Notes under the pieces: model-generated | Databases searched by the model: none | Seen by the model: the letters and a program-made list of their open reading frames with translations, nothing else | What the model was told of the DNA's origin: nothing | In this document: positions 5,847 through 47,837 of the stretch, in pieces | How positions within the stretch are numbered: position 1 is the first letter of the stretch | How the letters are laid out: the number at the start of each line of letters is the position of its first letter | Virus record (IMG/VR): IMGVR_UViG_3300036791_000093 | Coordinates: 1-54,684 of that record | From: a virus | Lineage: Duplodnaviria; Caudoviricetes | DNA length: 54,684 nt | Reading direction: 5' to 3' (one strand) | Made by a program: the position numbers and the translations under genes

Positions 5847-6065
5847 GTGGATATGGCAGAAATTCGCCTTACCGATGGGCAGGTGGCTCTCGTTGACGAC
5901 GAGGATTTCGAGCGTGTATCGCAATTCACATGGCAACCTATAAAGATAAACGGGAATACGCACGCAGGGACTTACGACATACCAACGCCGGACGGACGAC
6001 CTGTGTTAATGGAAAACCTCGTTATGCATCTAGCAGAAATCGATAAAGCTAGTAGAGAAAACTGA
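5847..6065 (+). CDS. N-terminal module of HNH-AP2-type homing endonucleases, nuclease domain absent (possible remnant)
   Basis: IRLTDGQVALVDDEDFERVSQFTW resembles the N-termini of 16167..16577 and 45113..45589. Confidence 0.6.
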   Translation: MDMAEIRLTDGQVALVDDEDFERVSQFTWQPIKINGNTHAGTYDIPTPDGRPVLMENLVMHLAEIDKASREN

Positions 6066-6589
6066 TGTTACTACCAAAAGAACTCAGAGAAATTTCAGGT
6101 TTCCCTGGTTATTTTGTTTCTTCTGGTGGTAGAGTCTTTTCGACTTTCTACAATAGAGGCACAGATTTCAGAGAACTCAAACTTAAACGCGGTTGGCACG
6201 GTTATATGGAAGTAACTTTGTATTCTTCTGGGGATTCTCCTAAAACCATGTTAGTCCACAGAATTGTAGCCCTAGCTTGGCTACCTGCCCCAGAAAATTC
6301 TTCATTTATACAGGTTCGACATTTAGATGATGATCCAACCAATAACGAGGTTAGTAATCTTGCTTGGGGTACTGCTGCAACAAACAATCGAGAACGTTCT
6401 ACTACTCTTCTAACAGAACAAAAAGTGAGAGAAATAAAAGAACTTCTCAAAATACATAGAAGATCGCGCGGAGAAACTGGACATGCAGACGGTAAATTAA
6501 CTTACGCAGAAATAGGAAAAATGTATGGTGTATCGAAACTTACAATTTCTTCTATAGCAAATGGGAAGAGTTGGAGAGATGTTGACTGA
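6065..6589 (+). CDS. NUMOD4-HNH homing endonuclease with C-terminal HTH
   Basis: GYFVSSGGRV (NUMOD4), VHRIVA, VRHLDDDPTNNEVSNLAW, LTYAEIGKMYGVSKLTIS; AT-rich. Confidence 0.9.
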   Translation: MLLPKELREISGFPGYFVSSGGRVFSTFYNRGTDFRELKLKRGWHGYMEVTLYSSGDSPKTMLVHRIVALAWLPAPENSSFIQVRHLDDDPTNNEVSNLAWGTAATNNRERSTTLLTEQKVREIKELLKIHRRSRGETGHADGKLTYAEIGKMYGVSKLTISSIANGKSWRDVD

Positions 6590-13731: not shown

Positions 13732-16189
13732 GCGCAAGCATCCACTAGCTATATGTGAAAAGTGTCCATTCAAGAACAGATCGGTTGCATATACAACCGG
13801 GCCAGAAGATGCCAAGATTGCTGTAGTATCGCGTAGTCCTGGTCATTACGAGGCTCTTGCGGGTAAGTCGTTCTCTGGCCCATCTGGACGTGTGTTGGAT
13901 CATTTGTTGCAAATCCACGGTTACCAACGTGGTGATATTTTGACAACTAATGTGGTTCTCTGCCAGTCCGATGGAACGGAGCAGGGCTGGGGGGTCGCTG
14001 CTGCCTGCTGCGAGCCACGCCTAGCGTCAGAGATAGAGACGGCCGATACAGTGATTGCCTGCGGTAAGGAGGCCGTGTACGCCGTTCTAGGCGAGTCCAA
14101 CATATCGCAGAACCGAGGATACCCACACGTCAGGGAAATCCACGCCTCAGATCAGACCTCATTAAAACAGCGAGTTATCGTTACCACGAATCCTGCCGTG
14201 GTTTTGCGCGATGATGCTAACTATCCTGAGATGGTTAGAGACTTTCGTCTCGCGCTCGATCCACTTCCTGCGCCTAAACTGCCAACTGTGCGAATCATCG
14301 ACAACATTCGTGAGGCCAGAGACGCCATTGTAGATATGCTTGAGTTAATAACCACTGGCACTAAAGAGATCGTGGCGTCAGACCTTGAGACTCGATGGCA
14401 GACTGGCGAGACTGAAATCGTCTGTGCGGCATTTGCAACTAGAGCCGAGCGGGCCGTAGTTTTCGGTGAAGGAGTGTGTTCAAATAAACACTTCGTCACT
14501 CACGAACTGTCTCAGTTGTGGATGATTCCAGGAGTTAAATATCTGTGGCATAACGGGAAGTACGACATCAAAGTCTTGCGTAGCTCGTATGGAATTCCAG
14601 CTACAGTAGGCGAAGATTCAATGTTGCTCTCGTGGGCATTGGATGAAAGACCAGGTGATCCTGAAAGTGGAGCAGGTGGACATTCACTCGAATGGCTACT
14701 CAAGGACGAGCTTGGCTGGCCCAAGTACGAGCCAACCTCAGTCCGCAACTTTAAAAGAACTGGTAACTTGGAGAAGCCGAGGGAGCTTTATGAGTATAAC
14801 GGCTTTGATACTGCTGGCTCTCTGGCCCTTTTTGAAGTTCTCAAGCATAGGGCAATCAATGACAATGTTTGGGAGAAACCTTATAAGGGCATCATCTCGC
14901 GTCTTTCGATGGCGCTCGCGCGTATTGAGCTAGTCGGCAATCTATACGACGCAGAGAAAGCCTGCGACATTCTCGAATACGAGGTATGGCCCAAGCTAGA
15001 CGATCAACGCCAAAGGTTGAGGCGCATATCAAGCAGGCCCACACTCAATCCGAATTCACCAAAACAGCTAGAGAAGCTAATGTATGACGATTGGGGCATC
15101 GAACATGATTTGATGCGTCCGAAGATTGAACGGCAAGGCAAACGCAGCACAGACAAGTATGTGCGCGAAGCTATGTTGCTTGGTCTATACAGACTACCTG
15201 CTGCTAACGGGAATCGAGACAGCATCGATCAATTCATTCAGACGCTCGATGATTTCAAAGAATTGGACACACAGCGCAGTAGATACCTTGAAGGTTTGGT
15301 GTTGAAGCGTAAGGCAGACGGGAGGATCTACACGGAGTTTAAGATTCACGGTACGGAGTCTGGGAGGTTGTCAAGTGCCAATCCAAACCTTCAGAATATC
15401 ACTCGGACAAAGGAGGGTCTACCTAACATTAGAAGCTGCTTTATCCCAGACCCCGGATGTGTTTTCGTTTCAGCTGATCTTTCCCAGGCCGAACTCAGGA
15501 CGATTGCTGTTCTTAGCGGAGACATCAATCTTAGGAGTATCTACCTTGATACAAATAGATCGCTCCACAAGGAAGTAGCCGCCGAGTTCTATGGGGAAAA
15601 CTACACGTATGAACAATACGTGAGAGCGAAGAACATCAACTTCGGTGTGGCTTATTGGCAAAGCGCATTCAGCTTCGCTCAGTTGTACCACATGCCACGC
15701 GAAGAAGCGCAGAAGTTCATTGACTTTTGGTGGGATCGATTCCCGCAAGTGTGGGCATGGACGAAAGAAACCGAGAAAGCTGTGTTGACCACGGGTGAGC
15801 TGCAATCTCCGTTTGGTCACAAGCGTCGGTTCTTCGTGATTCCCGCGGACGAGTCATCCCGTCTGCATATCATCAAAGAGGGCATCAACTTCAAGCCTCA
15901 GAACATCGCAGCGAACATAACTTTGTGGGCACTTTGCGATTTCGTGGATCATCTAATCAAATACGATATGTGGCATATTGCTCAACCGAGAATCACAGTT
16001 CACGACTCAATCCTAGTCAATGTTCGTATGGGACACGAGGAAGAAATCGGTTATCTTCTAAAAGGGTTCCTTGAAGATGCGCCTATGAAGGCTATCGGAT
16101 GGGACTTTCCTTATTTGGCCGACCTTAGTATTGGGCCTACGTGGGGAGAATTGAGGGAAATAAATTTTGAAACAAATCAAGCTATCTGA
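13724..16189 (+). CDS. polA: Family A DNA polymerase with N-terminal uracil-DNA-glycosylase-like domain and 3'-5' exonuclease
   Basis: UDG-like CEKCP, FSGPSG, TNVVLC; exonuclease SDLET, HNGKYD, YNGFD; polymerase SGRLSS, NLQNI, ADLSQAELR, RAKNINFGVAY, VHDS. Confidence 0.95.
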   Translation: MSERKHPLAICEKCPFKNRSVAYTTGPEDAKIAVVSRSPGHYEALAGKSFSGPSGRVLDHLLQIHGYQRGDILTTNVVLCQSDGTEQGWGVAAACCEPRLASEIETADTVIACGKEAVYAVLGESNISQNRGYPHVREIHASDQTSLKQRVIVTTNPAVVLRDDANYPEMVRDFRLALDPLPAPKLPTVRIIDNIREARDAIVDMLELITTGTKEIVASDLETRWQTGETEIVCAAFATRAERAVVFGEGVCSNKHFVTHELSQLWMIPGVKYLWHNGKYDIKVLRSSYGIPATVGEDSMLLSWALDERPGDPESGAGGHSLEWLLKDELGWPKYEPTSVRNFKRTGNLEKPRELYEYNGFDTAGSLALFEVLKHRAINDNVWEKPYKGIISRLSMALARIELVGNLYDAEKACDILEYEVWPKLDDQRQRLRRISSRPTLNPNSPKQLEKLMYDDWGIEHDLMRPKIERQGKRSTDKYVREAMLLGLYRLPAANGNRDSIDQFIQTLDDFKELDTQRSRYLEGLVLKRKADGRIYTEFKIHGTESGRLSSANPNLQNITRTKEGLPNIRSCFIPDPGCVFVSADLSQAELRTIAVLSGDINLRSIYLDTNRSLHKEVAAEFYGENYTYEQYVRAKNINFGVAYWQSAFSFAQLYHMPREEAQKFIDFWWDRFPQVWAWTKETEKAVLTTGELQSPFGHKRRFFVIPADESSRLHIIKEGINFKPQNIAANITLWALCDFVDHLIKYDMWHIAQPRITVHDSILVNVRMGHEEEIGYLLKGFLEDAPMKAIGWDFPYLADLSIGPTWGELREINFETNQAI

Positions 16190-16577
16190 CGGTAATATCA
16201 CAATCGTAGATGATGATGTCTACGATTGGGCTAATAAAATCAGATGGAATAATAATGGATTAAATTATGTTGTAACGGGTAGAGGTAACACAAAAAAATA
16301 TCTTCACAGAATGATTACAGAATGTCCTCCAGAAAAAGTTGTAGATCATATCAACATGAACACATTTGATAATAGACGAGAAAATCTGAGAATAGTAACT
16401 CGTTCAATCAATAATAGAAATAATTTAGGAAAAGGATACCATTTTCACAAGCAGACACAAAAATGGTGTGCCCAACTCAAACGTGATGGAAAGAAGATTT
16501 ACATAGGTCTTTTCGTCACCGAACAAGAAGCAAAAGAAGCAGTCAGGCAGTTCAAGGATAAGGAGCAAGCGATATGA
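16167..16577 (+). CDS. HNH-AP2 homing endonuclease
   Basis: YLHRMI, VDHINMNTFDNRRENLR, KWCAQL..DGKKIYIGLF; AT-rich. Confidence 0.9.
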   Translation: MKQIKLSDGNITIVDDDVYDWANKIRWNNNGLNYVVTGRGNTKKYLHRMITECPPEKVVDHINMNTFDNRRENLRIVTRSINNRNNLGKGYHFHKQTQKWCAQLKRDGKKIYIGLFVTEQEAKEAVRQFKDKEQAI

Positions 16578-17397: not shown

Positions 17398-17759
17398 TGG
17401 ATGAAGATATTGACAAGCTGATCGCGCTCGTGAAGAAAGAGCGCAAGGCCAACGAGTTCTACGGACTCGCGAACGACCGCATAGACGCGCTTGTTTCCGC
17501 GCTCGAAGCGCTTGTTTCCGCGCTGGAACAGGCCCAGGAGAGCAATACCGGGTTGACCGAACGAGCGAGTGAGAACGCTGTGCGCCTCGCTGCTGCGATG
17601 CGACAGCGCGAGGCGGCTGAGGCCGACCTGGCACGGGCGCGGGAAGCGCTCGCGGAAATCGCGAACGGGTTCGCCGAGGCTAATGATGAGCGTTCTCGTT
17701 CGTCCGAAATGCAGCGGGTCGCTCGCGCTGCTCTCGCGGCCGGGAGCGGCGATGAGTGA
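17394..17759 (+). CDS. Coiled-coil hypothetical protein (GC-rich)
   Basis: Heptad pattern; similar to the next gene. Confidence 0.7.
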   Translation: MMDEDIDKLIALVKKERKANEFYGLANDRIDALVSALEALVSALEQAQESNTGLTERASENAVRLAAAMRQREAAEADLARAREALAEIANGFAEANDERSRSSEMQRVARAALAAGSGDE

Positions 17760-18048
17760 CACCGACAAGCTGATCGCGCAGGCGCGCGCCTGGCAGCACG
17801 ACCTGATGCCGCACACGGTAGAGCTTCTAAACGCGCTCGCTGACGAGTTAGAACAATCCCAGGCCGAGACGCTGGACGCGCGAGTGCAGACCGCGTGGAA
17901 GGTAGCTGAGGTTCGAGAACAGCTAGAGGCGGCTGAAGTCGAGTTGGCACAGGCGCGAGAAGCACTTAAATGGATTGAAGCAGAACCGGAAAATCAGGTG
18001 AAAGTGTTGATGTGGGCACGCGCCGGTCTTGGAATGGTTGATTCGTGA
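17752..18048 (+). CDS. Coiled-coil hypothetical protein (GC-rich)
   Basis: MSDTDKLIAQ... start after GGGAG; EAAEVELAQAREAL is shared with the previous gene. Confidence 0.7.
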   Translation: MSDTDKLIAQARAWQHDLMPHTVELLNALADELEQSQAETLDARVQTAWKVAEVREQLEAAEVELAQAREALKWIEAEPENQVKVLMWARAGLGMVDS

Positions 18049-42064: not shown

Positions 42065-43663
42065 CTAGGCTGAGCTGGTTGGTTTTGGAACGTTCCCACT
42101 ACCAGCTCCCTTTGTGATTGCTACGTTACCTTTCTGGCTTTGTCCGTTACCAGGTGTGGTTGGTGGTGGTGGCGCAGTAGTGCTAACCGTAGCGGGCGGT
42201 GGGGCACCTGCGCCGCCACCTGTGTAAGTACCCTGTAGCAAGATTTGCTCACGTGTCGGGTATTGGTAGGGTTCAGCGTTGGGATTCTTGTCGGGCATGT
42301 CGAACACGCTACGAATCCAGTTCTCAGTCTCAAGATCCATCGAGATGGCATCTTGAGCAACTAGACTCGAAAGTGCCGAACCAATCATCTGAAGGTCTTT
42401 GGTTTCACCGATGTTCCTGACTTTCAAAATGGGGAAATTTGTCGTCGGATAGTTCCAAACAACCAGTTCTGGAATCAGATACATGTTCACCACGTCTGCG
42501 ATGTAATTCGCGATGTACCTGAGAGCCTTCATAAAGATGTCCGCTTGGACACCACCTGTGGCTCGACTACCGGACGATCCTTGCAAACCTAGAGCCATGA
42601 ACTCAGCCATGACATTCAGGAGAATCATGGTGTTGTGGTGTGCGGCACTTTCGAGCGCATTCACCAGATTACCATGAATCTCCGCAAAATCGACTGTGAT
42701 ATTCGGTGTGGTAATGAAGAATGATTCTTCGTTGGTTCTCAAGTTACGCAGCATAGTCCTCAGTGATTCTTTATCTTCTGCTGTAGCTGCTGGGCCAAGT
42801 GCTCCATGTGGAATACCTAGACTGTGCCGTTCTTTTTGGATAGCATCGATCTTGTAGAAGTGTGTTTTGTAGTACCAGTGTGCATATGCTGTCCTAAGCA
42901 GCGAACGACCCGTAAGATCGCCTCCACGCCGGCTAAACGTGAAAATCATGATCTTAGCGATATCCAACTGGACTTGTTCCACTGACAAATCAGCTCTGAT
43001 GGCTTGTTGGGTTATATTCTGTGGGCCACCGTTGTCATCGTATGTAATTAGGCTGAGTGTGCTTGGAGGCCGTACACCAAGCTTCTTAAGCATGGTGTAC
43101 TGCTTCGTATTACGTGCCTTACCTTTCGGCGTCCATTCCCGAAGTTCGTAAACTTTCTCCAACACGCTATAACCATCTTCAAAGAAGTGCAACACGTCCT
43201 CAAGACTGTTAAGAAAAGGTGCCGCCATGCCTTCAAACAGGTTTGCGCAGATGAAATCGCTCACTTCTTGGTTGATTGGTTGGTCATCATAAGGCTCTAC
43301 ATAGAAGTCTGCACCCAAGATTGGAGTCTTTTGCACACGCATCGATACATCAACCGCTGCATCGTTCATCATCTTTGCGTATGTTAGTGTGCGCTGGTAT
43401 GGTGAAACTAGGTCTGGTACCAGCTCGATGATTCTAATCGGCTGTGACGAACCCGTTTCTTGGTTGAGCGACGGCTGTGCAATACTTGGATCGTTAACTT
43501 GACCCGATGTGTAGCTTGTCCCTGTTTGCGCTTTCCGTGGTGGAGTCGCGCCCCCCTTTTCCAACCCCTGCACAGGTGCCGGGGGCGCGTCGGTAGGCGT
43601 AGTAGTGTTAGACGCGATGGGCGCGGTACCTGGCTTAGACCGTCTGCGTGGCAAGAGTGGCAT
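42065..43663 (-). CDS. Portal protein (DUF935/Mu gp29-like)
   Basis: GYSVLEKVY, GRSLLR.AY..WYYK, ERHSLGIP, GSRATG, LIPELVVWNY. Confidence 0.9.
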   Translation of the reverse strand: MPLLPRRRSKPGTAPIASNTTTPTDAPPAPVQGLEKGGATPPRKAQTGTSYTSGQVNDPSIAQPSLNQETGSSQPIRIIELVPDLVSPYQRTLTYAKMMNDAAVDVSMRVQKTPILGADFYVEPYDDQPINQEVSDFICANLFEGMAAPFLNSLEDVLHFFEDGYSVLEKVYELREWTPKGKARNTKQYTMLKKLGVRPPSTLSLITYDDNGGPQNITQQAIRADLSVEQVQLDIAKIMIFTFSRRGGDLTGRSLLRTAYAHWYYKTHFYKIDAIQKERHSLGIPHGALGPAATAEDKESLRTMLRNLRTNEESFFITTPNITVDFAEIHGNLVNALESAAHHNTMILLNVMAEFMALGLQGSSGSRATGGVQADIFMKALRYIANYIADVVNMYLIPELVVWNYPTTNFPILKVRNIGETKDLQMIGSALSSLVAQDAISMDLETENWIRSVFDMPDKNPNAEPYQYPTREQILLQGTYTGGGAGAPPPATVSTTAPPPPTTPGNGQSQKGNVAITKGAGSGNVPKPTSSA

Positions 43664-45129
43664 TAGAGCCTTATCAACTCATCGAGTGTTATGTTGTTGT
43701 GCAACGTGAAGAAATCCTCACTCTCACTACCCTTGTAATTGGCACCGTAAACATCGCTAAGGTGCATCCCTGCACCATTTACGAAGTACGGGCCAATGAA
43801 GTAGCGGAGCGCATCCACCGCATGATCGTCAACCTTATGTTGAATATTGCCGTCCGCAGTCAATTCTTGCAGGTCGGATCTACGCGCCACTCGTCCTTGT
43901 TCCTTAACATGAAGCTTTGGCATCTGCCTAATCAAATTAGTGCAACTAGGATTGACGAGCAGCTTGGCTGGCATCGACTTGAGCATACGCTTCATTTGCT
44001 CGATCGCCAGTTTCCATCGCACGTCCTCCTGCGCTACGTAACCGATCGTGAGTGCGAGAGTTGATGCCTCATCTGCACCACGCGGATCGCCCCACATGCC
44101 ATCAACATGATAGCCATCTGGATTTTCGCGATCACGCAGGTAGATGCCGTGTTCGTGTGTACTCAAGCCAGACTTATAGTATTCCCGCCACACGTAGACA
44201 AAGGGGTTGTTGACATCTGCGGGATCGGGTATGACTTGTACGTCAAGGCATACGAAAGGATTAACAAATCCGTAGTCAAATGCAAGGAAGTTTGGGTACT
44301 GCGGCTCGAAGGGATGATGGACAATGTGGACATTATCCTCCCACTCCTCGAAGATGGTGCCAGTCATCGTTGTGAACTTGGCACCATATTCCTGGTCGAA
44401 CCATCTCTTGCTCGCCACACGCTTTACACGTTGAATCTCAGGGTCGTTGTACCCGCCAGGAAAACGTACCGTATTCTCCCACGTGGGGAAGTTCCACGAC
44501 TGGTACAGTGTCTTACCGCCAGGAGTCAAATTGCTGAGATTAGCATCCTGGCCCAGCATGTACATGCCGTGATACCAGTTGTATCCCTGCGGCGTACTTG
44601 GGAAGTCACATGAGCCGCGCAGGTCGCTCAGCGCCGGCTCTACAAACTGTTCCCATGTAGCTCTGTTGTGCCTCGCCGCCTCGCTCATACATGCGTGACT
44701 GAGCGCTTCTCCAAGCAAGGCATCAGGCTTATCAGCAGACACCACTTCAATGTGGGCATTCCAGGGTGTGATGATGTACATGTCACCCTGGTGAGCTGAG
44801 TAGCCCTTCTTGCAATACTTGAGGATTCCAAGTTTCTGGAAGTCCTGCCAAACAACGCGGAACTCTTTCTCACCTAGCTTGTACGTTGGCCCGATGATCC
44901 AGTTCCACGTATCTGTCTTAAATGCTTTGAGTCCCATGCGATGGCCCGCCGGCAATGATTTGCCATATCGCCTACCGCAGCATGGGATGCTGAACCTAGC
45001 CTTAGAGAACAGGTATTCATTCTGACCTGGTGAGTGAGGCGCGAACCCGATCTTGGAGTAATACTGATCCGCTGGAATACCAGGTTCCAGATTCGGGTCT
45101 GGCCTCCCTACGTTAGTTGTTAAGGACAT
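43663..45129 (-). CDS. terL: Terminase large subunit
   Basis: CGRRYGKS, SEAA, STPQGYNW, QEYGAKF, AFDYGF, DDHAVDALRY. Confidence 0.95.
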   Translation of the reverse strand: MSLTTNVGRPDPNLEPGIPADQYYSKIGFAPHSPGQNEYLFSKARFSIPCCGRRYGKSLPAGHRMGLKAFKTDTWNWIIGPTYKLGEKEFRVVWQDFQKLGILKYCKKGYSAHQGDMYIITPWNAHIEVVSADKPDALLGEALSHACMSEAARHNRATWEQFVEPALSDLRGSCDFPSTPQGYNWYHGMYMLGQDANLSNLTPGGKTLYQSWNFPTWENTVRFPGGYNDPEIQRVKRVASKRWFDQEYGAKFTTMTGTIFEEWEDNVHIVHHPFEPQYPNFLAFDYGFVNPFVCLDVQVIPDPADVNNPFVYVWREYYKSGLSTHEHGIYLRDRENPDGYHVDGMWGDPRGADEASTLALTIGYVAQEDVRWKLAIEQMKRMLKSMPAKLLVNPSCTNLIRQMPKLHVKEQGRVARRSDLQELTADGNIQHKVDDHAVDALRYFIGPYFVNGAGMHLSDVYGANYKGSESEDFFTLHNNITLDELIRL

Positions 45130-45589
45130 AATCAGAGCGAGGAAAGTTCAGACGTGCATACTCCCCAAAGCATTCTATTGCTGCTCTGTCATATGCTCTA
45201 GCGGCATCTTCCTCATTGTCATAGCGACCAAGAAAAATCTTTTTGTAATCTTTCTTAATTTCCGCTTGCCATTTGTTCTTGGTTTTTTGCCAGCATACAC
45301 CCTTGAATCTCGATGTACGCCGGCCCGCTATCTTTCTTTTGTTGGCATTGTTAAGTGTTCTGGTTGCAGCTCTGACATTTTCATTCTGCATGTTGAGAGG
45401 ATCGAGGTCCTTGTGATCCCATTCTCCACCATTCGGAGCCCTGCCAAACAAGAACACATGCATCTCCATCACGCCATTGGTTGGATAGCCAGTGCGATTG
45501 AGATACCAGTTTGATCTCATAGCCAAATCGTACTTGTCATCGCTGACAAGCACAACTTTATCTGAATTATTAAGAGGTACTGTTTTCAT
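45113..45589 (-). CDS. HNH-AP2 homing endonuclease between terS and terL
   Basis: WDHKDLDPLNMQNENVR; TSRFKGV.W..NKWQAEI...LGRY..EEDAARAYDRAA...FGEYARLNFP. Confidence 0.9.
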   Translation of the reverse strand: MKTVPLNNSDKVVLVSDDKYDLAMRSNWYLNRTGYPTNGVMEMHVFLFGRAPNGGEWDHKDLDPLNMQNENVRAATRTLNNANKRKIAGRRTSRFKGVCWQKTKNKWQAEIKKDYKKIFLGRYDNEEDAARAYDRAAIECFGEYARLNFPRSDYVLNN

Positions 45590-46052
45590 TTTTAAATTGT
45601 TGGAGTTCCTCATGGGTGTAAGTATTACCGGACTGCTTATCGGGTGCAGGCTCGGGTGTGGTTTCAAACAAGCCATTAATCAGATCGCGGATGGGATCGC
45701 CCTCGAAACGTCCTTCCTCGAAGGCTTCCTTGAGTACTGTGGTTGAGGCTCGCAATCTGATCGATTCACTATCGCTGTTCTGAGCAAGCCACACAATCTG
45801 GAGTGCAGCTTCCTCAGCATGTGTACGGAACAAATCTCGTGCGGCTTTCTCCACGTCCTGCGGTCGCCGCTTTTCCTCAGCTTCCTTGGCTTGTGCCTCA
45901 GCGAACTCTTCCCTGAGAGCTGCGGCGTACTCCTTAAGTGCGCTTTGCGCCATTTCCTCGGTAAGGCTGTCATCTGGGCTAACGGGGGTTTGCGGCGTGG
46001 GTGGGGTTTCTGCATCTGGATCGGGTACGTGAGTATGTGGCTCGTCGGCCAT
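45570..46052 (-). CDS. terS: Putative terminase small subunit
   Basis: Helical protein upstream of terL; SESIRLRASTTVL; ATG at 46052. Confidence 0.6.
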   Translation of the reverse strand: MADEPHTHVPDPDAETPPTPQTPVSPDDSLTEEMAQSALKEYAAALREEFAEAQAKEAEEKRRPQDVEKAARDLFRTHAEEAALQIVWLAQNSDSESIRLRASTTVLKEAFEEGRFEGDPIRDLINGLFETTPEPAPDKQSGNTYTHEELQQFKNENSTS

Positions 46053-46068
46053 GCGTGGAAGTATAGCA
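46053..46068 (-). promoter_or_regulatory. Extended -10 promoter giving a leaderless terS mRNA
   Basis: Minus strand TGC-TATACT-7 nt-ATG with no SD sequence. Confidence 0.6.
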
Positions 46069-46116
46069 ACGTTACTCGGTGGCACGGCTGGACACAGGGA
46101 TATCGCAGGAATGAGG

Positions 46117-46134
46117 TCAGATTATATAATCTGA
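46117..46134. promoter_or_regulatory. Perfect 18-bp palindrome TCAGATTATATAATCTGA
   Basis: Read directly; upstream of the late operon. Confidence 0.7.
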
Positions 46135-46190
46135 TGTAGGCTCGTTTTGGTGATTCGGTACACCCAAGACGATAGCGCATCATGTATAAA

Positions 46191-46230
46191 AAAATGGCTG
46201 AAAACAATGCTTTTCGTTTTCAGCCATTTT
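46191..46230. repeat. 15-bp perfect inverted repeat
   Basis: AAAATGGCTGAAAAC-10 nt-GTTTTCAGCCATTTT. Confidence 0.85.
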
Positions 46231-46276
46231 ACATTGGTGAGTGACTCATTTCTGAGTCACTCACCATTCCAGTGTC

Positions 46277-47353
46277 CTAGTTCACATCGCCCACGTAGCC
46301 CACTACTGCGGCCATGCGCGCGACGTCCGGTGTTGCGAGTGCGGCTAGCCTTGCCTCGCTCACCTTGCTCACTGTGCTCACCTTGCTCACGTGAGTAGCC
46401 TCGCTCGTGTCCTCCACGGGCGCATCGTTGCGCGTCACGTAGTCACTCACGCGCCACAGTGTGCGCGTGTACTGCCTCGCTCCGTACCTCGTGCCAGCGC
46501 TCACGCGCGGCGTGTAGACCGTGAGGCTTGCCAGTGTCGGAGTCTTTCTCACGAGCGCGATTACACGCGCGTAGTCCTCGTGCGTAGCGTCCGGGTGAGT
46601 GCCAGTTCCCACTACGTTTAGCGGCGCGAGTAGGTCTACAGGGCCGTGTGCGTCGCGCACGCTGACCCGCTCGTTTAGACCCTTCACTCCACGGATTCCA
46701 GTAGCCCCGCGCGGTGAGACACGAGCCTCACGCGCGTTGACCATGCCGCGCCACGGCGCGGGATCGTAGCCCTCACGCGGTGAGTCTGACGTGAGTACCG
46801 CTCCCGATTCCATCGCGCGTGCCATAGCAGCGGCTACGCGCCTGCCTCGCGGCGTCAGTCCTTCCACGCGGTCTAGTTCCGCCACGCGCTCACGTGACGC
46901 TACATCACGCACGATTGCCACGAGATACCGCGCGTCACGGTTCAGTAGTGAGCGCGTCACGTTGTACGTGTGTGCCTCACGCGCGAGTGTGTCGGGACGA
47001 TTGAGTAGCGCGTCAGTAGCGGCGCTCACGTGCTCCCCCCAGTAGCCCTGTAGACCAGACTTGCGCGTGAGCATGCCGCACGTGTGATTCCAGCGTGCCG
47101 CGTGCCTTGCCTCACTCACGCGGCGCGCCTCACTCGCGAGTGTGTCTACGCTCACGTGTGCCGCGTAGCTCACGTCCGGCCGTGTGTCAGTGTGATTCGC
47201 CGCGAGGCATGCCGCGTGCGCCTCGTTGTACTCGCGCGCCATCCGTGCCGTGTACCGCTTGGCTAGTGCCAATCGTGCCGCATGATGCGCCATTGCGCGT
47301 TGCCGTAGCGCCGCTACGTTCCGCGCGATTTCCTCTCTCGTGTACGTGTTCAT
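46277..47353 (-). CDS. Orphan Ala/Arg-rich protein with no Phe, encoded in a TT-depleted strand
   Basis: 358-codon ORF, GAAAGGA RBS 7 nt before ATG, TGC-TACTCT upstream. Confidence 0.75.
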   Translation of the reverse strand: MNTYTREEIARNVAALRQRAMAHHAARLALAKRYTARMAREYNEAHAACLAANHTDTRPDVSYAAHVSVDTLASEARRVSEARHAARWNHTCGMLTRKSGLQGYWGEHVSAATDALLNRPDTLAREAHTYNVTRSLLNRDARYLVAIVRDVASRERVAELDRVEGLTPRGRRVAAAMARAMESGAVLTSDSPREGYDPAPWRGMVNAREARVSPRGATGIRGVKGLNERVSVRDAHGPVDLLAPLNVVGTGTHPDATHEDYARVIALVRKTPTLASLTVYTPRVSAGTRYGARQYTRTLWRVSDYVTRNDAPVEDTSEATHVSKVSTVSKVSEARLAALATPDVARMAAVVGYVGDVN

Positions 47354-47458
47354 GGGTGAGTCCTTTCGGGTGAGTGTGACGCGCGCCTCATGCGCGCACC
47401 CCCAGAGTAGCAGCGGCGCGCGGTTGCACGTGTCCCTACCCCTAGAGTACGCATAGCT

Positions 47459-47704
47459 TGGCTGAAATGTTAGGACTGTCCTTACATCTCAGCTTGGCTG
47501 GCTGGCACCGTGTCTCTCGTGAGGCACGGTGCCTCACACGGCACACGGCACACGTGAGGCACACGACACGTTTAGGTGTCGTGTCACACTTGTGTGTCAC
47601 GACTCAGATATGGGTCGTGTCACTTTTCTGTGACATGACCCAGATATGGGTCGTGTGACTTATCTGTCACCACACACTTTCCTTACATTTCAGGAAAGTG
47701 GTGG
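47459..47704. repeat. Cluster of short palindromes and direct repeats
   Basis: GGCACCGTGTCTC/GAGGCACGGTGCC; ACACGACAC/GTGTCGTGT; CAGATATGGGTCGTGT twice; CACTTTCC/GGAAAGTG. Confidence 0.8.
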
Positions 47705-47722: not shown

Positions 47723-47778
47723 CGCAAGTCAGCAAGTCAGCAAATTCGCAAGTCAGCAAGTGTACAAATTCGCAATTT
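47723..47778 (+). repeat. Seven tandem degenerate 8-mers (consensus (A/C)GCAA(G/A)T(C/T))
   Basis: cgcaagtc agcaagtc agcaaatt cgcaagtc agcaagtg tacaaatt cgcaattt. Confidence 0.85.
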
Positions 47779-47837
47779 GCTAACTTTTCAGATCGCGCGC
47801 CTGCTTTAATAAAAACAGCACAGGACGGGGGAATCAA

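Follow-up and report, generated by a model that had tools for sequence, protein, structure and literature searches.

Adjacent thymines are excluded from the coding strand of an optional phage cassette beside the small terminase gene

Introduction

Why should one unit of a phage genome be written almost without two thymines in a row, and on one strand only? The question arises from a complete virus contig of 54,684 nucleotides (nt) (Duplodnaviria, Caudoviricetes; IMG/VR record IMGVR_UViG_3300036791_000093, positions 1 to 54,684), referred to here as the window, in which the block from 46208 to 47694 has almost no AA on the + strand. The block holds an open reading frame (ORF) for a protein of 358 amino acids (aa), ORF358, and lies beside the gene for the small terminase subunit (terS). 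The - strand is the coding strand of this cassette, and AA on + equals TT on -, so that the desert is one of TT in the sense strand. A first-pass annotation, made from the letters alone, had drawn the desert and read its asymmetry as selection on a single-stranded form. It named three options: a single-stranded DNA (ssDNA) phase hiding from a toxin or nuclease that reads thymine runs, a messenger RNA (mRNA) resistant to a UU-specific ribonuclease (RNase), and avoidance of a context-dependent base modification.

Results

A desert of adjacent thymines on one strand

Between 46207 and 47694, AA was found on the + strand solely at 47271 and at 47465-47466 (a single AAA, 47465-47467), and the positions given by the first-pass annotation proved exact. 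The count for 46208-47694 was 3 AA against 32.8 expected (observed/expected, o/e, 0.09), with AA-free gaps of 1065, 229 and 194 nt; elsewhere in the window the longest AA gap was 157 nt, and for all other dinucleotides the longest gap in the window was at most 282 nt. TT on the + strand of the block was near normal (69 vs. 81.0 expected, o/e 0.85), which bears out the earlier remark that it is common there. The block contains 221 A on the + strand, equal to 221 T on the coding strand, yet only 3 adjacent pairs. Its guanine plus cytosine (GC) content was 0.62, compared with about 0.50 for the whole window. GG (o/e 0.43) and CC (0.67) were likewise low on its + strand, and purine/pyrimidine alternation was raised (0.62 vs. 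0.51).

Mononucleotide shuffles of the block gave three AA or fewer in 0 of 20,000 cases (mean 32.7, minimum 15). By part, TT observed and expected were 2 and 11.3 in the non-coding leader (47354..47694, - strand, 341 nt; 62 T, the pairs including one TTT), 1 and 20.1 in ORF358 (46277..47353, - strand), and 0 and 2.1 in the trailer. When the leader alone was shuffled, its low count was matched in 3 of 20,000 cases. Back-translation of ORF358 with the codon usage of the phage late genes gave 39.8 ± 5.6 TT (minimum 23, n = 5000), where 1 is observed. The codon-preserving check that had been proposed for this locus, a synonymous-codon shuffle within the usage of ORF358 itself, also left the gene short of TT (4.55 expected vs. 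1, P = 0.017). When 32 sequences (290,562 nt) were scanned for every one of the 16 dinucleotides, each of the 9 strongest deserts proved to be the TT-free cassette. The other GC-rich stretch of the window, at 17501-18000 in the early/middle region (63% GC, T 73/500), had TT and AA near expectation and is not a desert.

A chimeric or foreign assembly was ruled out: the likely source run was also assembled separately, giving a single 45-kb contig across the block; pieces of 151-246 nt from inside the block, identical or with one mismatch, occur in two other soil studies; and five related loci carry the same desert. The ends of the contig are uninformative because its 127-nt terminal repeat has what we take to be an assembler word length. 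From the likely source sample, a 237-nt contig differed from ORF358 at 25 positions in 172 nt (46741-46912), so that a second ORF358 variant coexists in the same soil.

The exclusion in related loci and its loss in a broken copy

Five further phage loci were compared: L003 (the same as L004 and L010), L005, L006 (cut by a contig end), L034 (the same as L035) and L036. They share the order divergent gene, leader, homologue, terS, followed in L003, L034 and L036 by the genes for the large terminase subunit (terL) and the portal protein. Coding-strand TT o/e was 0.09 in the window, 0.05 in L003, 0.06 in L005, 0.06 in L006, 0.23 in L034 and 0.03 in L036. AA on the same strand was at 0.60-1.11 in the six loci, and TT in the downstream flanks at 0.72-1.00 (window 1.00). 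Of the nine TT in L034, seven belonged to the fourth codon or to a promoter-like patch of 200 nt. The first-pass annotation had named normal AA/TT in homologous loci as the outcome that would overturn it; all 6 homologous phage loci have the desert beside terS.

The non-coding leader was TT-poor by itself in all five loci that have one, and leader-only shuffles reached the observed TT in 17 (L003), 0 (L005), 1 (L036) and 1 (L034) of 10,000 cases. GC content was 0.59-0.69 in the cassettes against 0.51-0.53 in the flanks, alternation of purines and pyrimidines 0.54-0.69 against 0.50-0.51 (0.43 in the short L005 flank), and GC skew stayed around zero across the cassettes (-0.08 to +0.06). By these counts TT exclusion is kept in every phage-borne homologue examined, though the protein diverges to about 30-45% identity.

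A broken homologue was found among cellular genes on a 111-kb contig of an uncultured Actinomycetota metagenome-assembled genome (L033 4992-5510, also L037, G001 contig 20), with one TGA and one TAG inside the match. At a GC content of 0.67 it has TT at o/e 1.23, and its 172-aa open part has 4 Phe. High GC alone therefore does not remove TT, which rules out a GC-rich origin as the sole cause, and the TT rule is not a requirement of the protein fold. In bacteria, the family was matched in 2 of 401 sampled genomes of Actinomycetota, one of them weakly.

Exclusion acts on the dinucleotide, in codons and outside them

On the coding strand only adjacent TT was missing. T-N-T had o/e of 1.04-1.35 in four loci, every TT-containing trinucleotide was about tenfold low, and GGG was the sole other word low in all four. 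Pooled over the six loci, o/e was 1.12 for TNTC, 0.90 for TCT, 0.15 for TTT, 0.16 for TTTW and 0.79 for GA. Within ORF358, none of the 76 codons with T at position 2 ended in T, compared with 42 of the 282 other codons (Fisher's exact test, 3e-5); GTA and CTA were used in place of GTT and CTT. TT across codon junctions was absent (0 vs. 3.3 expected), as was Phe (0 of 358 residues vs. 3.64% in nine late genes). Exclusion works through synonymous codons, codon junctions, amino-acid content (no Phe) and non-coding sequence. Because the leader, the NTT codons, the junctions and the back-translation all show the loss of TT, it is the TT rule that shapes codon bias and amino-acid content, and not the reverse. 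The earlier statement that codon bias alone does not explain the block holds, on leader depletion in five of five loci as on the NTT codons.

Layout of the cassette

Judged from its layout, the block is predicted to be one self-contained accessory transcription unit on the - strand, set between a divergent control region and terS. As the first-pass annotation described, it covers the gene with 341 nt upstream and 69 nt downstream, and the inverted repeat, palindromes and 8-mer array around it are as described. At the 3' side, an intrinsic terminator was read directly at 46188..46230 (- strand; 15-bp arms 46191-46205 and 46216-46230, then 7 T at 46188-46194), and the first - strand TT past the desert lies in its loop. 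The same edge was seen in all four complete loci (window, L003, L034, L036), where the first TT falls in the loop or the T-tract of a hairpin terminator. Between stop codon and terminator, a perfect hairpin of 13 bp closed by a GAAA loop (a GNRA-type tetraloop) was likewise read directly at 46236..46265 (- strand); 300-nt windows over it fold with z of -6.1 and -5.9. The location next to the terminase genes stands in so far as the cassette adjoins terS; with a terminator of its own it is not in the terminase operon.

Compared with dinucleotide shuffles, the leader and the 3' end folded into far stabler structures (z -8.7, -7.0 and -6.1; leader -8.7), and the unit is dense in hairpins, with a minimum free energy of about -120 to -140 kcal/mol per 300 nt. 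The leader carries a Shine-Dalgarno-like AAAGGAC (47360-47366, - strand) and three 27-nt hairpin-forming palindromic repeats at an exact 36-nt spacing (47561..47659), which could be RNA stem-loops or operator sites. In relatives, the leader position has other repeats, of the CACCATAAT type in L003 (700-830) and the CTAATCGCGCACACGA type in L034 (4310-4360).

On its 5' side the desert begins on or close to a conserved AAATGTAAGG-type motif. The outer copy of this motif in the window is the palindrome CACTTTCCT / AGGAAAGTG (47675..47700), and an inner copy, an imperfect palindrome (GAGATGTAAGGAC ... CATTTCAG on the - strand, 47457..47500), holds the only TTT of the desert and divides it into parts of 229 and 1259 nt. 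The desert is also in two parts in L003 (211 + 1073 nt) and L036 (192 + 1159 nt), and in the window and these two loci the second copy lies 190-230 nt further in, the rare internal TT adjoining it. Sites like AAATGTAAGG surround the cassette in all relatives, upstream and sometimes also downstream of the ORF (window 47462-47492, 47680-47693 and 46218-46232; L003 ~900 and ~1940; L034 ~4225; L036 ~465 and ~700; L005 1610-1680 and 2780-2850). The motif may serve as a promoter or regulator site specific to the phage, or may mark a seam for cassette exchange; with one or two candidate promoters, the edges of the desert would be the layout of a transcription unit. As a repeated promoter of the phage type, the 14-nt motif was not found genome-wide (12 matches vs. 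8.2 expected). A search of known RNA families gave one chance-level match (E 0.71), and a tRNA search gave none.

Immediately beyond the edge of the desert, a tandem array of GCAAGTCA-like 8-nt units (47723-47790; a 24-nt copy in five registers, 8 nt apart) separates the cassette from the divergent early operon; it could be iterons, a terS-binding (pac) array or operator sites. On the other side, between the cassette terminator and terS, the palindrome CAGATTATATAATCTG with a perfect TATAAT (46100-46135) is a candidate late promoter or operator.

Optional presence at one genomic site

A search with terL returned 26 related viral loci, 12 of which had at least 1.5 kb upstream of terL. The cassette was lacking in 11 of these 12 and present solely in L010, and it occupies the same site in L005, L034 and L036. 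Both presence or absence at a single site and deviant base composition, the marks of an accessory cassette, were thus found. Relatives that lack it show at most a two- to three-fold local dip in TT at the site. In several, the site holds an unrelated small gene that runs on the opposite strand and encodes 119-153 aa with a common 'ILLAD..R..AR' start (all listed on the - strand: L007 1091-1450, L011 4824-5183, L014 1353-1769, L030 1383-1826, L022 2181-2558, L026 1109-1501, L020 4137-4535, L027 4898-5359). This gene contains little Phe (11 residues among 1063 aa in the eight loci) and shows a mild shortage of TT on its own coding strand (67 vs. 110 when pooled; in L007 3 vs. 13.0, with no Phe), a weak hint that the bias may follow the sense strand rather than a fixed DNA strand. 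Many related contigs (L008, L009, L012, L013, L017, L018, L023, L024) stop 100-550 nt upstream of terL; the genomes may physically end there, close to terS, or the assemblies may break at a variable site.

The ORF358 protein family

ORF358 is rich in Ala, Arg, Val and Thr. It had no match in Pfam, PHROGs or NCBIfam, and no PDB sequence at E ≤ 10. At E ≤ 1e-3, an exhaustive search without profiles yielded 42 proteins, the window's own fragment included; the 10 members whose clusters were looked up all came from metagenome collections and bore no informative name. Phe makes up 0.37% of residues across the 42 members and is missing from 15. Conserved residues use differing codons in the window, L003 and L006, including a TCC/AGT serine switch, and these synonymous differences show that the gene is protein-coding. 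It diverges faster than its neighbours, given that identity between the window and L003 is 41% for ORF358, 76% for terL and 69% for the portal protein.

Two AlphaFold models of low confidence (predicted local distance difference test, pLDDT, 67 and 73) show a long helix at the N-terminus and, at the C-terminus, a small alpha/beta part. With these low-confidence models, Foldseek found no match at E ≤ 0.001 and coiled-coil-like matches only, and VIA matched only the long helix (Z ~5); the Protein Atlas held no usable match for the family. The most conserved segment reads W-R-G ... R-G-A-S-G-I-R-G-V-R-G ... R-V-S-x-R-D ... V-G-V-A-T-H-P. Among 50,697 phage records, megablast and three tblastn searches with family members found no cultured relative. 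A single-protein scan of viral contigs found nothing, a search with one family alignment (A7) no locus, and another (A4) no match in genomes. The block is not a recognisable target of a diversity-generating retroelement, since it matched in its own genome only itself and its own 32-nt hairpin; among the ORFs scanned, a part of those in the genome, there was no reverse transcriptase. Going by composition and models, an Arg-rich, partly disordered, fast-evolving accessory protein would be compatible with an inhibitor or an RNA-binding factor.

Genomic context and host

terS (45570..46085, - strand, likely start ATG at 46052) is the first gene past the cassette terminator, and TT is normal from there on. 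It had no Pfam or PHROG match and is homologous to the gene before terL in L003, L005, L034 and L036. terL (43663..45129, - strand) matched phrog_2 (E 6.9e-22), and its best cultured relatives are actinophages at 33% identity. To the left of the cassette follow terS, an HNH/AP2 endonuclease gene, terL, the portal gene and the remaining late genes; to the right, beyond the 8-mer array, lie divergent early/replication genes for a helicase, an exonuclease, a Sak4-like protein, SSB, a primase, a deoxynucleotide monophosphate (dNMP) kinase and a family-A DNA polymerase. As listed, the HNH/AP2 endonuclease ORF (45113-45676) shares some 100 nt with the 3' part of terS, and the genome has at least three HNH endonuclease genes (the others at 6065-6589 and 16167-16577). 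No integrase was seen among the phage ORFs scanned. The phage also encodes an Rpf-like transglycosylase domain; because of this domain, the broken chromosomal copy and the actinophage relatives of terL, the host is probably in the Actinomycetota.

Discussion

A message free of adjacent uridines

Selection removed adjacent thymines from the sense strand of the cassette. That the asymmetry points to a single-stranded form, the core of the earlier reasoning, is upheld by leader depletion, the NTT codons and all six loci. Which form it is can be given in graded terms. We favour, tentatively, an mRNA that is free of UU, capped by hairpins and able to evade a UU-dependent RNase or RNA-modifying toxin. 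The sense transcript would have stable hairpins at both ends and no UU, so that an enzyme needing two adjacent uridines in single-stranded RNA would find no site in it. Such an enzyme might be a host endoribonuclease or RNA-modifying toxin, probably actinobacterial, or a housekeeping RNase. Enterobacterial RNase E favours sites followed by UU, and mycobacterial RNase E cuts before C. The cassette mRNA would survive and be translated while other messages were cut, and the ORF358 protein would probably be a factor needed under attack, for counter-defence or takeover. A fuller version is doubtful as a whole: in it, this natural nuclease-proof message of a group of soil phages would encode a Phe-free, Arg-rich inhibitor of a UU-specific defence not described so far, either an RNase or an RNA-modifying abortive-infection toxin, and probably one from Actinomycetota. 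That the raised GC content additionally keeps the cassette free of AT-seeking silencers is speculative.

Near-total loss of a 2-nt word over one transcription unit is what inactivation of a transcript by a single hit predicts. Among the three options, the mRNA is favoured because the desert ends at the terminator in the four complete loci and tracks the optional gene rather than genome position, and stable end hairpins fit a message built for survival. For such evasion there are partial precedents. The available text of a study of MazF toxins reports that ACA-free transcripts are still translated in MazF-expressing cells, that several MazF toxins have UU-containing sites, and that some natural genes under-represent MazF cleavage sites (PMC5408214). 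Likewise, an anti-phage toxin is described, in the portion of its report at hand, as recognising the dinucleotide GA in single-stranded RNA and blocking translation (PMC11618068).

Several observations weigh against this reading. We know of no UU-specific enzyme for the host, which is itself placed by a hint at the level of phylum only. The 221 single uridines are kept, so a plain U-specific RNase is not evaded. Other phage mRNAs have normal UU, which requires the ORF358 protein to be the critical one. A few TT remain inside genes: a TTG codon in the window, a TTC and a junction TT in L005, and a TTT codon in L034. All six loci share position and orientation, so gene and genome position are confounded. 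A sigma-70 scan found no promoter-like site, which leaves transcription of the 229-nt upstream part of the desert unsupported. The body of ORF358 folded no better than dinucleotide shuffles (z -1.0 to +0.6), and the most conserved segment of the protein is modelled as disordered, which lends no functional support.

Alternatives

Protection of ssDNA, the first of the annotated options, is unlikely. The - strand would be single-stranded as a displaced non-template strand, as a resected 3' tail at a genome end or as a strand displaced at an origin, and would escape an enzyme that reads adjacent thymines, such as a TTTW-type DarT. The asymmetry suits any single-stranded form, and TTT and TTTW are depleted, though this is implied by the loss of every TT. 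The probable host phylum is in keeping, as TTTW-type DarT has reportedly been described in Actinomycetota. Resected ends are made plausible by the encoded exonuclease, Sak4-like annealing protein and SSB. The cassette adjoins terS, beside which cos or pac sites usually lie, and several related contigs end shortly upstream of terL. Set against this, avoidance of TTTW needs no loss of ATT, CTT, GTT, TTA, TTC and TTG alike, the edges of the desert are a terminator and promoter-like motifs with no recognisable genome end, the rest of the genome has no such protection, the desert is present or absent together with an optional gene, and a GC skew near zero is poor ground for a persistent R-loop. The DarT motifs TNTC and TCT given in the available text of PMC7003065 are not avoided either, which weakens this option further.

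Removal of TT for the sake of transcription elongation is quite unlikely. Here TT in the non-template strand, or UU in a weak rU:dA hybrid, would have been lost to avoid pausing and hairpin-dependent termination ahead of the proper terminator. NusG of Gram-positive bacteria reads T-rich non-template DNA, for which the strand is correct; the unit is full of strong hairpins, and the T-runs on its 3' side are solely those of the terminator. Selection on each single TT would be weak, yet removal is near total. Known pausing motifs, moreover, need longer T-rich words, and ordinary GC-rich actinobacterial DNA keeps its TT (o/e 0.94 in the flanks of L033).

Very unlikely is avoidance of a base modification or of its consequences, by which the phage or its host would modify T, or the paired A, in a TT/AA context and the cassette would be kept unmodified on one strand. 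The rule does operate at the level of the dinucleotide, and the phage encodes a dNMP kinase, a gene that some phages with non-canonical nucleotides carry. Among about 37 ORFs scanned, however, there was no thymidylate-synthase-like, glycosyltransferase or aminoacyl-transferase gene, and a rule on duplex DNA would usually affect both strands, whereas TT on the + strand is normal.

Least credible is a by-product: a GC-rich acquired gene whose protein is Phe-free by chance, or a translational constraint towards independence of tRNA-Phe or of UU codons. The cassettes are richer in GC than their flanks and the family is nearly without Phe. The account is largely refuted by the leader and codon tests, as non-coding leaders are depleted, NTT codons are missing while other T-ending codons occur and GTA and CTA are used instead, TT is absent from junctions, and the equally GC-rich broken copy keeps both TT and Phe.

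Four further candidates were rejected: avoidance of ultraviolet thymine dimers concerns the wrong strand, the template strand keeping its 69 TT; Z-DNA or escape from an AT-binding silencer (of the Lsr2 type) is symmetric and cannot give loss of TT without loss of AA; an R-loop or origin primer does not fit a GC skew near zero; and T-to-C or A-to-G hypermutation would leave CC and TC enriched, which they are not. Z-DNA and AT-seeking silencers may contribute to the GC richness and the alternation of purines and pyrimidines.

Relation to known systems

The UU-free message proposed here is closest to MazF-resistant messages, in which a short RNA word is likewise removed from a whole message by synonymous choice and the message outlives a site-specific RNase; the text consulted describes both natural under-representation of MazF-mt3 and MazF-mt7 sites in some genes and engineered ACA-less transcripts (PMC5408214). 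Unlike these, the cassette excludes a dinucleotide, does so naturally and throughout a diverging family, extends the exclusion to a long leader and bars Phe from the protein; its cognate nuclease is hypothetical. The GA-reading toxin shows that an anti-phage effector can read a mere dinucleotide in single-stranded RNA. Its own word is not strongly avoided in the cassette, and the part of the report at hand describes no GA-free phage transcript (PMC11618068). DarTG, through ADP-ribosylation of thymidine in ssDNA, resembles the pattern in being strand-specific, T-directed and anti-phage, with three-T words depleted here; unlike what it would lead one to expect, the T-N-T core of its motifs, as given in the available text (PMC7003065), is not avoided and avoidance is confined to one cassette.

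Two broader phenomena share features with the cassette. Restriction-site avoidance is also a loss of short words under host nucleases; it is genome-wide, on both strands and of 4-6 nt, whereas that of the cassette is local, on one strand and of 2 nt. Morons likewise come and go among close relatives, with their own terminator and deviant GC content, and are not known with strand-specific dinucleotide exclusion. A search of the literature (full text, without supplements) found no natural, conserved, one-stranded dinucleotide exclusion confined to one optional phage unit.

Word avoidance for restriction sites and ACA-less mRNAs in engineering are already known; the literature search turned up no account of a dinucleotide exclusion so strict that it keeps an amino acid out of a whole protein family. 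The pattern is clean and quantitative, so that every viral contig can be searched for it; it brings a new protein family with a testable role, and it predicts a host enzyme that reads pairs of uridines, or pairs of thymines in ssDNA. Should the RNA reading prove wrong, the data still require some process that reads one strand of the cassette two bases at a time. If the fuller version is true, one-stranded word deserts in phage accessory genes would reveal the specificity of as yet undescribed RNA-targeting defences and locate their inhibitors from sequence alone.

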